Shown one piece after another: positions 15,010 through 21,138 of a stretch of 64,000 bases of DNA. Both the position numbers and the translations under genes were made by a program. The stretch spans positions 1,786-65,785 of the forward strand of contig CAYRMQ010000001.1 of NCBI GenBank assembly GCA_964425305.1, in the 5' to 3' direction. The notes below the pieces were generated by a model. That model saw nothing but the letters and a program-made list of their open reading frames with translations. It was not told the origin of the DNA and ran no database searches. Source of the DNA: an uncultured Anaerolineaceae bacterium (GTDB taxonomy: Bacteria > Chloroflexota > Limnocylindria > Limnocylindrales > CSP1-4). Position 1 is the first letter of the stretch. The number at the start of each line of letters is the position of its first letter.

Positions 15010-16299
15010 TCAGAACGGCGCCGGTTGCCAGCCGCCGAGGTCGGCTTCGATCTGCGCGGCGGCAGCCAGCGCGACGTGGTCGAGCCACGGCCCGGCGACG
15101 ACCTGGACACCGATGGGCAGGCCGTCCGACTGCCCCGCCCTGACGACGGCACACGGCCAGCCGGTCAGGCTGAAGAAGGTCGTGTAGCGGAAGTCGACGT
15201 CATCGCCGATCTTCGGCGCCGGCGTCGGGGCAACCGGCGTGAGAATGACGTCCACGCCGGCCAGCCACTCCAGCATCCGGCTGCGGTAGGCATCCCAGTC
15301 GCGCAGCACGTCGTAGAGCTCGAGGCTCGACAGATCGCCGTCATACGAGCGCCAGATCCTGTGGGTCAGCTCGTGACCGCCGTCCGGCAGGCTCCGCTCG
15401 ACGAGCTGCATGCCGGCGCCAGCAAGCGCGGCGCGAGCGTCACCGAGGACAGCGGCCGTCGGCGCGTCCGGCGGGAGGCCACCGGCGGCTGAATCGACGA
15501 CGAGGCGCAGGCCACGGAGGCTGGCCGCCGAGGCATCGGCCAGTGGCACCGGCGCCACGCCGGCGTCGTGACCGTCGGAACCGGCGAGCACCGGCAGCAG
15601 CAGCCCGAGGTCGTGCACCGTCCGCGCCAGCGGGCCCACCTGCGTGCGCGGATCGGCCAGCGCGCCGAGCTGACCGTCGTCGTCGTGGACTCCCGTCAGC
15701 GGCACGCGACCGGCGCTCGGCTTGAGCGTGGCCACGCCGCAGTAGTGCGCCGGCAGGCGCAGGCTGCCCCCGGAATCCGAGCCGATCCCGCAGGCCGACA
15801 TCCCCGCAGCGACGGCAGCGGCCTCGCCACCGCTGCTGCCGCCCGACAGGCGCTCGCGATCGTACGGGTTGAGCGTCCTGCCGAACAGCTCGTTTACCGT
15901 GTCGCCGCCGGAGCCGCCCGGCGGGCAGTTGCTCTTGCCCAGCAGGATCGCTCCGGCGGCGCGCATCCGGGCCACGACCGTCGCGTCACGTTCAGCGACG
16001 GCCGCCGCGCGTTCGGGCATGCCCAGCGTCGTGGGCAACCCTTCGACGTCGATGATGTCCTTGACCGTGAAGGGCACCCCGTGCAGCGCGCCCAGCCGCG
16101 TGCCGCCGGCCAGCTGCCGGTCGGCGTCGGCCGCGCGGTCGCGTACATCGGGGGCGAGCGTCACGACCGCGTTGATGTCTGGATTGAGCGCGTCGATGCG
16201 CGCCAGGTAGGCATCGACAAGCTCGCGCGCGCTGACCTCGCCGGCACGGATCATCGCGGCCAGCCGCGTCGCCGACAGCCCGGCGAGGATCTCAGCCAC
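15010..16299 (-). CDS. amidase (amidase-signature family)
   Basis: GGSSGGEAAAVAAG..GSDSGGSLRLPA signature. GTG at 16299 overlaps the upstream gene stop by 8 nt. The alternative ATG at 16377 would overlap it by 86 nt. Confidence 0.85.
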   Translation of the reverse strand: MAEILAGLSATRLAAMIRAGEVSARELVDAYLARIDALNPDINAVVTLAPDVRDRAADADRQLAGGTRLGALHGVPFTVKDIIDVEGLPTTLGMPERAAAVAERDATVVARMRAAGAILLGKSNCPPGGSGGDTVNELFGRTLNPYDRERLSGGSSGGEAAAVAAGMSACGIGSDSGGSLRLPAHYCGVATLKPSAGRVPLTGVHDDDGQLGALADPRTQVGPLARTVHDLGLLLPVLAGSDGHDAGVAPVPLADASAASLRGLRLVVDSAAGGLPPDAPTAAVLGDARAALAGAGMQLVERSLPDGGHELTHRIWRSYDGDLSSLELYDVLRDWDAYRSRMLEWLAGVDVILTPVAPTPAPKIGDDVDFRYTTFFSLTGWPCAVVRAGQSDGLPIGVQVVAGPWLDHVALAAAAQIEADLGGWQPAPF

Positions 16300-17155
16300 G
16301 GTCGGCCACGTAGCGGAAACCGGTGGCGTCGCGCTCGATGCGGCCGATGGGCCGGTCGGGCTCGTGCGACAGCGCAACGCGCCAGCGCTCGTCGGCCGCG
16401 CGCTCGAAGAGGCGCTGCTTGACGAGCACGCTGTCGAGCGGGAAGTCGTCGAAGCTGGGCAGCCAGGTGGGATTGGCGCTCCACGGGCGCATGCACAGGT
16501 CGCCGAAGAAGGCCACGGTTCCGTGGGCGCCGCGAACGACGATCGCCTGGCTCCCCGCCGTGTGCCCGCCGGCGGCGGTCACCCACACGCCGGGGAGCAG
16601 CTCCCGCTCGCCGTCGGCCGCGTCGCCGAGGGCGAAGTCGCGCACCTGCCGGATGTCGTCCTGGACGTAGCCGGCGACGACGCGCGGGTTGTCGGCCAGG
16701 GCAACCTCCCACTCGGCGCGCTGGGCACAGACGCGCGCCCGCGGAAAGGCCCGACCGCCGGCGCGGTCGAGCAGCCCGCCGGCATGGTCGAAGTGCAGGT
16801 GGCTGAGCGCGACCCAGTCGACCGACGCGGGGTCAAAGCCCGCCTCGCGCAGCGCGGGCAGGATCGGCGAACCTTCGACGCCGCGCTGAATGACGGTCTT
16901 CTCATCCTGCCGCTCGCCCAGGCCGGTCTCGACGAGGACGCGGCCGGCGGGCGTCTCGACGAGCAGGCAGTTGAGCGCCTGGCGCAGCCGGTTGTGCTCG
17001 TCGATCTCGTGCTCGACCAGCGGGTGCCAGTCGCGCCGGGGAACCATCCCGAGCAGCACGCCGGCGTCGGAGCGGAAGTGGCCGGCGACGACGAGCGCCA
17101 GCCGCACCCCGCCGCCCAGGTCGGCGAACCAGTCATGGACGTCGCGCAGCGCCAT
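16292..17155 (-). CDS. MBL-fold metallo-hydrolase
   Basis: Met257 of ORF 16292..17923. HLHFDHAGG zinc motif and a later GGHTAG. Confidence 0.8.
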   Translation of the reverse strand: MALRDVHDWFADLGGGVRLALVVAGHFRSDAGVLLGMVPRRDWHPLVEHEIDEHNRLRQALNCLLVETPAGRVLVETGLGERQDEKTVIQRGVEGSPILPALREAGFDPASVDWVALSHLHFDHAGGLLDRAGGRAFPRARVCAQRAEWEVALADNPRVVAGYVQDDIRQVRDFALGDAADGERELLPGVWVTAAGGHTAGSQAIVVRGAHGTVAFFGDLCMRPWSANPTWLPSFDDFPLDSVLVKQRLFERAADERWRVALSHEPDRPIGRIERDATGFRYVADRG

Positions 17156-17169
17156 GCGCCCGCCGCCGG

Positions 17170-19263: not shown

Positions 19264-20746
19264 GGACGACCTCCAGCCGCCCGCTGAGGACGTCGTCGCG
19301 CAGCGTCGCCTTCGAAACCTTGCCGATGCCGGTCATTGGGAAGCCGTCGACGATGGCCGCCGCCCGCGGGCGCTTGTAGGGGGCGAGCCGGTCGCGGCAC
19401 CACGCCAGCAGGTCCGCTGCCGCCAGGCTCGAGCCGGGCCGGCGGACGGCCAGGACGACGGGCGTCTCGCCCCAGCGCTCGTCGGGGACGCCTACGACGG
19501 CGGCGCTCGTGACGTCCGGGTGGGCGACGGCGACGACCTCGATCTCGACCGGCGCGATGTTCATGCCGCCGCTGATGATGAGGTCCTTCAGGCGGCCGGT
19601 AAGGAGCAGGTTGCCGGCCTCGTCGAAGCGACCCAAATCGCCGGTGCGCATCGACCCGTCGGGCAGGCTCCACGTGCGCGGGTCGATGCCCTCGGGCAGG
19701 TAGCCACGCATGCGCGCCGGGCTGGCGCAGACGACCTCGCCCGACTCTCCGGCAGGCAGCGGCCGACCATCACCGTCGACGACGGCGACGCGCGAGCCCG
19801 GGAACGGGCGGCCGACGCTCTCCGGCGCGCCGCGCAGAACCTGTGGCGTGGCAAAGGTGATCGTCAGCATCTCGGTCATACCGTAGAACTCGTACGTCCG
19901 CACGTGGGGCAGCGCCTCCCACCAGCGGCGCAGCAGGGCCGGCGGCATCGGCTCCGACGCAAAGTACAGCCAGCGCAGGTGGGCCAGCCGCGCGTGGTCG
20001 ACGCCGTCGAGCAGCCGCGCCAGCAACGTCGGCACGGCGTCGAGCGTCGTCGCCCGCGAGCACGCCTCCTCGACGCGCTCGAGATCGAAGCGCGGCAGCA
20101 CCTCGAGGGTCACGCCGGCGAAGAGGCTGGGCAGGATCTGCTCCGGGATCGAGGCGAAGAAGGGCAGGAAGCAGAGCATCACGTCGTCGTGCTCGAAGGG
20201 CAGCGCGCGCTCGAGCTCGCCTGCCGCGAAGCGCATCGTGGCGTGCGTCTGGACGGCGCCCTTGGGCGTGCCCGTCGTGCCGCTGGTCAGCAACACCGTC
20301 GCGGCGGCCGCCGGATCGAAGGCCGTCAGCCGGCGCTCGTCGTCGGTCGCCAGCAGCTCGGCGATTGACGCCGTGGGCAGGGCCCGACTGACGGCGTCGG
20401 TCGCCGGCCCCTCCATGTCGCCGACCAGGCAGGCGCTCGCCTCGACCAGCCCGAGCTGGGCGACGAGCTCTGCGGGCAGCAGGAACTGGTTGAGCGGCAC
20501 CGCCACGCAGCCCGCGCGGAGGATGCCGAAGTAGGCCGCCAGGTAGGCGGCGTCGTTTTTGCCGAGGATCCCGATGCGGCTGCCCGCGGCCAGGCCGAGC
20601 CGGCCGACGAGCGAGCCGGCGATGGCGCCGCTGTGCCGCCACAGGTCGGCGTACGTCCACGTGTCCTCGCCGTCGCGCAGGCAGAGCCGCCGGGGATCGG
20701 CGAGGACTGATCTTTCGAGCGCGGCGACGAGCGTCTCCGACGTCAT
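19253..20746 (-). CDS. AMP-dependent acyl-CoA synthetase/ligase
   Basis: Met at 20746 in an ATGA overlap with the hotdog gene stop. AMP-binding motif LLTSGTTGTPKG, plus YGMTE, GDLG, and the C-terminal GKVSK Lys. Confidence 0.9.
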   Translation of the reverse strand: MTSETLVAALERSVLADPRRLCLRDGEDTWTYADLWRHSGAIAGSLVGRLGLAAGSRIGILGKNDAAYLAAYFGILRAGCVAVPLNQFLLPAELVAQLGLVEASACLVGDMEGPATDAVSRALPTASIAELLATDDERRLTAFDPAAAATVLLTSGTTGTPKGAVQTHATMRFAAGELERALPFEHDDVMLCFLPFFASIPEQILPSLFAGVTLEVLPRFDLERVEEACSRATTLDAVPTLLARLLDGVDHARLAHLRWLYFASEPMPPALLRRWWEALPHVRTYEFYGMTEMLTITFATPQVLRGAPESVGRPFPGSRVAVVDGDGRPLPAGESGEVVCASPARMRGYLPEGIDPRTWSLPDGSMRTGDLGRFDEAGNLLLTGRLKDLIISGGMNIAPVEIEVVAVAHPDVTSAAVVGVPDERWGETPVVLAVRRPGSSLAAADLLAWCRDRLAPYKRPRAAAIVDGFPMTGIGKVSKATLRDDVLSGRLEVVHGP

Positions 20747-21138
20747 TGCTCCCGATTGTCGCGCCGGCCCGAAACGATCGTCGCCTCCGCACGCGCCGCC
20801 TCGAGCGGCGGGTCGAGGACGTTGCCGTTGCCGTCGGCGTCGGCCTCGATGACCTTCCACAGCTCGAGCCCGACGCGCCGGCTCGAGTGGCCGGTCGCGA
20901 CGATGCGCGCGCGGCCCTCGACGTAGTCGCCGACGTGCAGCGGCGCCAGGAACTCGACGGAGTGATATGCGACGCACAGGCCCTCGTCGCCGAAGACCCT
21001 GATCGCCAGCTCGGTCTCGAGGTCGCCGAAGATCTCGATGACGGTCGCGCCGGCGACGAGCCCGCCGGCGTAGCGACCTTCCGTCGGCCCGAGCCGCAGC
21101 CGGATGAGCGCCGTCAGTGCGTCCGCTTGGTCGATCAC
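20743..21138 (-). CDS. hotdog-fold protein (thioesterase/dehydratase-like)
   Basis: 131 aa, GTG start with GAGGAGG upstream. Size and pattern (HSVEFLAPLHVGDYV) are typical of the hotdog fold. First gene of the operon. Confidence 0.65.
   Translation of the reverse strand: MIDQADALTALIRLRLGPTEGRYAGGLVAGATVIEIFGDLETELAIRVFGDEGLCVAYHSVEFLAPLHVGDYVEGRARIVATGHSSRRVGLELWKVIEADADGNGNVLDPPLEAARAEATIVSGRRDNREQ

Follow-up and report, generated by a model that had tools for sequence, protein, structure and literature searches.

A B12-dependent acyl-CoA mutase operon with a predicted role in 2-aminoisobutyrate catabolism in an uncultured Chloroflexota bacterium

The 64,000-nucleotide stretch of DNA analysed here (the window) belongs to an uncultured Anaerolineaceae bacterium (GTDB lineage Chloroflexota; Limnocylindria; Limnocylindrales; CSP1-4) and comprises positions 1,786 to 65,785 of contig CAYRMQ010000001.1 in assembly GCA_964425305.1. 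It contains an operon of six genes, coding for the two subunits of an adenosylcobalamin-dependent acyl-CoA mutase, a coenzyme A (CoA) ligase, a hotdog protein, a metallo-beta-lactamase (MBL)-fold hydrolase and an amidase. From its gene content, the operon probably encodes a CoA- and B12-dependent catabolism of 2-aminoisobutyrate (Aib, also called 2-methylalanine) or of a very similar alpha,alpha-dialkyl amino acid. Aib occurs in meteorites, and the lack of an alpha-hydrogen makes it resistant to ordinary amino-acid enzymes. It is also found in fungal peptide antibiotics, and according to PMC7782822 dialkylglycine decarboxylase was the only enzyme known to use it before the AibH1H2 monooxygenase route was described.

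In the proposed pathway, the MBL hydrolase and the amidase would probably free Aib from an amide- or peptide-linked precursor, and the ligase would convert it to 2-aminoisobutyryl-CoA. The mutase would then move the thioester carbon from C2 to a methyl group to give 3-aminobutyryl-CoA, the amino analogue of the reaction catalyzed by the 2-hydroxyisobutyryl-CoA mutase HcmAB. Asp112 of the large subunit would hold the ammonium group of the substrate as Asp117 of HcmA holds the hydroxyl group, and Gln203 would occupy the position of the arginine that binds the carboxylate in methylmalonyl-CoA mutase (MCM). Ammonia would be eliminated from 3-aminobutyryl-CoA by the hotdog protein, and the resulting crotonyl-CoA would enter beta-oxidation. 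The skeleton would be rearranged first, as it is for 2-hydroxyisobutyrate, because a tertiary carbon without an alpha-hydrogen can be neither transaminated nor oxidised. Expression of the operon would be controlled by a divergently encoded TetR-family regulator, and a G-protein chaperone, if one is required, would be supplied in trans by the single MeaB of the genome.

The mutase belongs to the adenosylcobalamin acyl-CoA mutase superfamily, having the MM_CoA_mutase TIM-barrel (PF01642, 689 bits) in the large subunit and a B12-binding domain in the small subunit, where the DxHxxG motif reads DGHDRG from residue 19. The original prediction, made from the sequence before any database search, singled out Val85, Asp112 and Gln203 of the large subunit (codons 19009-19011, 18928-18930 and 18655-18657), and both the residues and the codon positions proved right in the translation. 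Aligned by phmmer with HcmA (PDB 4r3u), the three residues fall opposite Ile, Asp and Gln (within wtmrqIagf, gistDfd and keymaQkey, respectively), and the predicted constant offset of five holds, as the HcmA encoded on the plasmid of Methylibium petroleiphilum is numbered Ile90, Asp117 and Gln208. Equivalents of Asp117 and Gln208 are present in the window, and Ile90 is replaced by Val85. The triplet, abbreviated V-D-Q, sets the enzyme apart from its relatives. True HcmA references read I-D-Q (4 of 4), the ICM-like enzymes, which resemble isobutyryl-CoA mutase (ICM), read F-A-Q, and the MCM-like enzyme of the same genome reads Y-A-R, as do 64 of 162 aligned sequences (database representatives and that gene). 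Val85 and Gln203 stand where MCM has Tyr89 and Arg207, and the Gln198 of ICM is matched while its Phe80 and the Ala at the Asp117 position are replaced by Val and Asp. V-D-Q is a family trait, carried by 119 of the 120 best protein-database relatives (70-90% identical), the remaining one being a fragment. The part of the original prediction that set the enzyme apart from methylmalonyl- and isobutyryl-CoA mutases therefore stands on its signature. The hydroxy substrate that it proposed is not supported, the hotdog protein being homologous to beta-aminoacyl-CoA ammonia-lyases.

That homology indicates an amino rather than a hydroxy substrate. The hotdog protein, the sole Kal-like gene product of the genome, aligns with 114 of the 120 positions of the NCBIfam model for 3-aminobutyryl-CoA ammonia lyase (Kal, NF052388) and scores 111.7 bits, the cut-off of the model being 160. 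According to PMC4619459, Kal and the beta-alanyl-CoA ammonia-lyase Acl are the only two hotdog-type beta-aminoacyl-CoA ammonia-lyases to have been described. The best PDB match of the hotdog protein is 4mtu, a beta-alanyl-CoA:ammonia lyase (E 1.7e-14), and the thioesterases that come next score 24 bits or less. Hotdog proteins of two other loci match the Kal model as well, with 130.5 and 102.6 bits. We therefore regard the protein as a clear homologue of the beta-aminoacyl-CoA ammonia-lyases, with ammonia elimination as its predicted function. We know of no dehydratase in the Kal/Acl hotdog family.

The association between this hotdog protein and the mutase recurs in related operons. Metagenome contigs were scanned with an alignment of the relatives and with the patterns PWTIRQVA and STDFDLPT, which yielded 80 loci that form two groups both by identity and in the tree. 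The mutases of the first group, the window's own clade, are 56-85% identical to that of the window, and their operons share a core of hotdog, ligase, large subunit and small subunit in one of two orders, hotdog-ligase-(MeaB)-mutase or mutase-ligase-hotdog-(MeaB). Orthologues of the ligase in the related operons are 44-72% identical. Informative loci, in which the ligase is complete and its relevant side is covered, numbered 35, and the hotdog gene was found in 30 of them (22 of 26 after merging at 95% identity), compared with none of 78 ICM-like loci from a genome collection and none of four true hcm clusters.

One locus without the hotdog gene holds another enzyme in the same slot. In L116, the closest of the long relatives, whose mutase is 82% identical to that of the window, a HemL-like class-III aminotransferase gene (4810-6441) takes the place of the hotdog gene, its stop codon overlapping the ligase start. 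The protein belongs to a large family (70-75% identity) that bears only automatic names ('glutamate-1-semialdehyde aminomutase'). PMC3149608 describes a variant lysine fermentation in Cloacimonas, in which Kal gives way to Kat, a HemL-like enzyme that transaminates 3-aminobutyryl-CoA. By analogy, the L116 aminotransferase appears to be a non-orthologous displacement of the hotdog protein. Two near-identical loci that also lack the hotdog gene, L148 and L149, carry an AIR-synthase-related (PurM/HypE-like) gene after the ligase (8878-9981), followed by a GntR-aminotransferase (MocR-type) regulator.

The second group of loci links V-D-Q mutases to an enzyme already known to act on Aib. Its mutases are 47-49% identical to that of the window, stand much closer to HcmA (739.8 bits against 4r3u) and are 83-85% identical to plasmid genes of Sinorhizobium medicae, S. 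meliloti and Shinella. The operons begin with an aminotransferase-like gene, followed by the small subunit, MeaB, the large subunit, a crotonase and a ligase. The leading 'aminotransferase' is an orthologue of 2,2-dialkylglycine decarboxylase (659 bits to PDB 1d7r, the next match scoring 232), and it was present in 11 of the 12 second-group loci with upstream sequence, the twelfth having a Kal-like hotdog gene instead. In the Sinorhizobium sp. K101 plasmid pK101b (L200, 3238-11087), the decarboxylase gene is divergent from a LysR gene; it lies at 4255-5490, where it was located by tblastn, and is missing from the distributed gene table. Cultured rhizobia, namely S. medicae (including WSM419), S. 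meliloti and Shinella, have the plasmid operon in the form of a divergent LysR gene, decarboxylase, small subunit, MeaB, V-D-Q mutase, crotonase and ligase. Within the window's own clade, a single contig carries two paralogous hotdog-ligase-MeaB-mutase operons (L124 and L125), and the stretch between them holds a dialkylglycine decarboxylase gene (536 bits), paired with a LysR gene that diverges from it, as well as a GntR gene and an ECH_2 hydratase. Three independent lines, the homology of the hotdog protein to Kal and Acl, the displacement in L116 and the link to the decarboxylase, thus point to an amino substrate. Also in favour of the proposed pathway, the window's genome (93% complete) has no orthologue of dialkylglycine decarboxylase (best match 37% identity) and no 2-hydroxyacyl-CoA lyase above the cut-off, so the operon must act alone.

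The phylogeny was inferred with FastTree (LG+gamma) from 150 representatives of the whole protein space, the loci and the references. The window's mutase falls within a clade of 20 V-D-Q sequences (support 1.0), and the four I-D-Q HcmA references form with the Sinorhizobium-type mutases another clade (support 1.0) that excludes the window. The sister group of the window's clade differed between two trees, being the ICM-like F-A-Q enzymes in the first (0.54) and the HcmA clade in the second (0.485). Should the two V-D-Q clades not be sisters, the signature would have arisen twice. Residues common to both V-D-Q clades as against HcmA were found at 16 positions, several of them fixed by the search patterns, and at 17 in the reverse control, so there was no excess. 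By identity, the window's mutase is 58% identical to an ICM-like enzyme, 52% to the MCM of its own genome and 47% to HcmA.

The strongest alternative follows the original prediction and takes the enzyme for a variant 2-hydroxyisobutyryl-CoA or 3-hydroxybutyryl-CoA mutase; the ligase would activate 2-hydroxyisobutyrate or a related tertiary hydroxy acid, and the hotdog protein would be a dehydratase or thioesterase. HcmA is indeed the best solved homologue of the large subunit (575 bits, against 487 for human MCM), and Asp112 and Gln203 are identical in the two. We nevertheless consider this reading unlikely. The mutase lies outside the HcmA clade, at 47% identity and with a joining node of only 0.485, and it has Val where all four true HcmA enzymes have Ile. 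The adjacent ligase, which had been taken to fit the Hcm arrangement, does so in forming a ligase-plus-mutase operon, but it is not an orthologue of HCL, the ligase of the Hcm system. It gave no tblastn alignment (E <= 1e-5, at least 40% coverage) to the ligase genes of the four true hcm clusters. HCL structures exist in the PDB, and none is among the 26 PDB matches to the ligase with E <= 1e-40; the top scores, of about 189 bits, belong to feruloyl-CoA synthetase, FadD13 and malonyl-CoA synthetases. The protein has the motifs TSGTTGTPKG and GKV. A hydroxy substrate would also leave without explanation the exchange of the conserved partner, an ammonia-lyase homologue, for an aminotransferase in L116, and the link to dialkylglycine decarboxylase; these partners were found in none of the four hcm clusters.

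Several observations nonetheless weigh against an Aib pathway, and some of them favour the hydroxy acid. Asp112 and Gln203 are shared with a hydroxy-acid mutase, so the signature does not separate an ammonium from a hydroxyl group. The hotdog protein scores under the equivalog cut-off of the Kal model, which is compatible with a changed activity such as that of a dehydratase or thioesterase. Five of the 35 informative loci lack the hotdog gene, the metagenome loci carry Val and Asp by construction and include near-duplicates, and the likeness of the L116 aminotransferase to Kat is one of description. The decarboxylase link is strongest in the other mutase clade and absent from the genome of the window. 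In addition, genes for a thiamine pyrophosphate (TPP)-dependent 2-hydroxyacyl-CoA lyase or for 3-hydroxybutyryl-CoA dehydrogenases lie near some related operons (L165, L168, L175, L143, L161/162). The lyase of L175 (6162-7871) scores 639.8 bits against NF058623, above the curated cut-off of 600, and further lyase genes were found in L165 (1-1437), L168 (3290-4975), L199 (8610-10370) and L201 (12256-13671). Such a gene stands directly before some V-D-Q mutase operons, with homologues 44-51% identical in the hcm clusters of Methylibium and Mycobacterium ELW1, and some related loci have GntR regulators, as reported for hcm clusters (PMC7176365). These neighbours hint at 2-hydroxyisobutyryl-CoA chemistry, and the lyase is unexplained if Aib is the substrate.

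A second alternative retains the amino chemistry and changes the amino acid. The mutase might interconvert alanyl-CoA and beta-alanyl-CoA or act on an isovalyl-type (2-amino-2-methylbutanoyl) CoA, and the lyase would then yield acryloyl-CoA or a C5 enoyl-CoA. The best solved homologue of the hotdog protein does act on beta-alanyl-CoA, dialkylglycine decarboxylase accepts several dialkylglycines, and Val in place of Ile would slightly enlarge the pocket. Alanine and beta-alanine are readily transaminated, however, so a B12 route for them would bring no obvious benefit; the best family match of the hotdog protein is the C4 enzyme Kal, and a C4 product suits the neighbouring 3-hydroxybutyryl-CoA dehydrogenases. 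We regard this alternative as improbable. For the wider family, it is very improbable that Aib is decarboxylated to acetone, joined to formyl-CoA by the TPP lyase to form 2-hydroxyisobutyryl-CoA and then linearised by the mutase as in sulfate reducers, for although each enzyme occurs beside V-D-Q mutases and acetone is known to be activated by a TPP enzyme together with a mutase (PMC7888143, PMC7176365), the decarboxylase and the lyase never shared a locus among those examined, neither is present in the window's genome, and no role would be left for the conserved ligase and the ammonia-lyase homologue.

Catabolism of Aib through 2-aminoisobutyryl-CoA can be compared with several known systems. 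The HcmAB/MeaH/HCL system of Aquincola tertiaricarbonis and Methylibium petroleiphilum PM1 shares the split adenosylcobalamin mutase, the Asp117 and Gln208 equivalents, a CoA ligase in the operon and the rearrangement of a tertiary carbon, and MeaB accompanies most of the window's relatives. The window differs in having Val for Ile90, a mutase of a separate clade, a ligase of another ANL subfamily, an ammonia-lyase homologue and no MeaB in the operon, and the proposed substrate group is an ammonium rather than a hydroxyl. The split IcmA/IcmB enzymes are closest by identity (51-58% over 78 loci) and have subunits of equal size and Gln at the third position, but they have Phe and Ala in place of Val85 and Asp112 and lack the hotdog partner. 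The hotdog protein of the operon is homologous to Kal and Acl, and the alternation of kal and kat reported in PMC3149608 is mirrored by the HemL-like enzyme of one relative. Unlike Kal, the hotdog protein falls below the equivalog cut-off and stands beside a B12 mutase and a ligase in an aerobic-type soil lineage. No lysine-fermentation genes were seen in the operon or the annotated loci, the rest of the genome not having been searched for them. The beta-valine pathway of Pseudomonas sp. SBV1 (ligase BvaA, lyases BvaB1 and BvaB2), as described in PMC4619459, also activates an amino acid whose amine-bearing carbon is tertiary to its CoA ester and then eliminates ammonia, but it has no mutase step and its lyases belong to the crotonase family. 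This family may be relevant to the enoyl-CoA hydratase (crotonase) gene of the Sinorhizobium-type operons.

Two routes of Aib catabolism appear in print according to PMC7782822, decarboxylation to acetone by a pyridoxal phosphate-dependent enzyme and oxygen-dependent hydroxylation to alpha-methylserine by a monooxygenase. The presumed substrate of the present operon is the same, and the decarboxylase gene is linked to V-D-Q mutase operons, but the proposed route would be CoA- and B12-dependent, would proceed without oxygen and would keep all four carbons. The literature searched, in which subscription journals were thinly covered, contained neither an aminoacyl-CoA mutase nor a B12-dependent route for Aib; the earlier suggestion of an undescribed route agrees with this result. 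The known substrates of the mutase family are methylmalonyl-, isobutyryl-, ethylmalonyl-, 2-hydroxyisobutyryl- and pivalyl-CoA. On balance, we are inclined to regard the window's enzyme as a putative 2-aminoisobutyryl-CoA mutase, which would be the first carbon-skeleton mutase with an aminoacyl-CoA substrate and would found a third, oxygen-independent and four-carbon-keeping route for Aib. This route would then be widespread among Chloroflexota and Actinomycetota of soils and, through the second clade, among rhizobia, and the variable peptidase and amidase modules would allow these bacteria to feed on Aib-rich fungal peptide antibiotics. If this is correct, a small and well-studied mutase family would gain a new reaction, one active-site Asp would serve hydroxyl and ammonium substrates alike, and the enzyme would be a biocatalyst interconverting alpha,alpha-dialkyl and beta-amino acids. 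The prediction is testable with three recombinant proteins, and a sister operon is available in cultured rhizobia.

The two hydrolases at the end of the operon appear to be one version of a variable amino-acid-release module, because varied peptide and amide hydrolases recur beside related operons. The MBL protein has the HxHxDH metal-binding motif (HLHFDH, from residue 113); it matches a YtnP-like lactonase model at 3e-36, far under the cut-off, and its atlas neighbours are generic MBL clusters. Its role is inferred to be precursor hydrolysis or metabolite repair. The amidase carries the Gly/Ser-rich signature GGSSGG from residue 153, and its best PDB matches are the urethanases UMG-SP1/2 (180 bits), followed by GatA and NylA. 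Within the subclade of at least 79% identity, four loci extend downstream (the window, L116, L119 and L006), and in each of them an MBL gene comes after the small subunit. The amidase stands at this spot in the window only and is absent there in L116. The original prediction saw in this tail an unusual, distinguishing trait of the operon; the hydrolases are unusual, but they are one variant of the recurring module and do not define the system. Near related operons lie genes for S15 X-Pro dipeptidyl peptidases, dipeptidyl peptidase IV, M19 and S51 dipeptidases, an S10-like carboxypeptidase, penicillin amidase, amidohydrolases and amidase-signature amidases, together with AsnC/Lrp regulators, an amino-acid permease and a branched-chain amino-acid ABC permease. 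In peptaibols, Aib-Pro bonds are abundant. Single loci can be dense in such genes: in L167 (2499-12419), two S15 enzymes are joined by an M19 dipeptidase, a penicillin amidase and an S10-like carboxypeptidase, L128 (169-2817) has a dipeptidyl peptidase IV, and in L007 (4008-4979) an S51 peptidase gene immediately precedes the hotdog gene.

The six minus-strand genes and the divergent TetR gene lie where they were first placed (Table 1). The junctions are tight, which argues for a single operon. The hotdog stop codon overlaps the ligase ATG (ATGA), as read from the sequence, the ligase and large-subunit genes overlap by 11 nucleotides, and gaps of 3 and 32 nucleotides separate the large from the small subunit and the small subunit from the MBL gene. 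The MBL stop codon overlaps the amidase GTG (GTGGCTGA overlap), and the two genes are translationally coupled. The hotdog gene starts with GTG and has the Shine-Dalgarno sequence GAGGAGG in front of it. The repeat search found an imperfect palindrome at 21201-21230 (18-nucleotide arms, 72% complementary), which is a possible operator, and the true start of the TetR protein is probably an internal ATG near 21316. L117 and L118 have a TetR gene, 72% identical and likewise divergent. A consensus scan for a sigma-70-like promoter found none, and a terminator scan likewise gave nothing useful.

Table 1. Genes and control region of the mutase operon, in coordinates of the window.
Feature	Position	Strand	Supporting match or motif
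Amidase-signature enzyme, 429 residues from GTG 16299 (likely start; open frame up to 16377)	15010-16299	-	PF01425 9.5e-92
MBL-fold metallo-hydrolase, 281 residues, HLHFDH	16292-17137	-	PF00753 1.3e-14
B12-binding small subunit, 137 residues, DGHDRG	17170-17583	-	TIGR00640 1e-48, PF02310 2.9e-29
Acyl-CoA mutase large (substrate-binding) subunit, 558 residues, Val85/Asp112/Gln203; proposed 2-aminoisobutyryl-CoA mutase	17587-19263	-	PF01642 689 bits
AMP-forming acyl-CoA ligase, 497 residues; proposed 2-aminoisobutyrate-CoA ligase	19253-20746	-	AMP-binding 4.9e-69 and AMP-binding_C (Pfam)
KAL/ACL-like hotdog protein, 131 residues; proposed 3-aminobutyryl-CoA ammonia-lyase	20743-21138	-	NF052388 E 2.5e-32
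Intergenic control region	21139-21315	.	Imperfect palindrome and GAGGAGG
TetR-family regulator, divergent from the operon	21190-21957	+	TetR_N 5.6e-15, TetR_C_24 4.3e-33 (Pfam)

The lack of a MeaB-type chaperone, which the original prediction had listed among the differences from the Hcm system, is real for the operon of the window but peculiar to a narrow subclade. Of 66 related loci, 40 yielded a MeaB gene, and the only ones without it between the ligase and the mutase are those of the closest subclade (the window, L116-118, L121, L006 and L007). A search of the genome found one MeaB, on another contig and beside an MCM fragment. A canonical mutase gene appears to be split over two contig ends, C7 (47001-47777) and C146 (5088-5837), the latter with an in-frame TAG, and the only MeaB gene lies 8 kb from the C7 piece. 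An assembly break within the MCM locus probably accounts for this split.

The operon is patchy in its lineage, as no other mutase more than 57% identical was found in 401 genomes of the phylum (a tally that counts the window's own, takes in 23 genomes of the same family and includes six flagged unpublished). The nearest named relatives belong to Limnocylindrales and other Chloroflexota, followed by Solirubrobacterales and Thermoleophilales, and the operon has probably been mobile between soil lineages. In the scan of the genome collection, two of 80 loci were true relatives and the others were the ICM-like loci mentioned above. A plasmid collection held no member of the window's clade, all its matches being less than 60% identical, and a cluster look-up of five relatives pointed to no cultured carrier of that clade.

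The genes flanking the operon look unrelated to it, coding for a GNAT protein, a pirin, an adenylate-cyclase/AAA protein, MoaA and XdhC. Just past the downstream neighbours of the operon lies the gene of a large, 1134-residue protein (10238-13642, plus strand), in which an adenylate/guanylate cyclase domain precedes an AAA_16 ATPase domain. Elsewhere in the window (32591-34561, minus strand), an S8 subtilase that also contains cadherin-like and bacterial Ig domains has an ABC-2 transporter pair and an ECF sigma factor as its neighbours.

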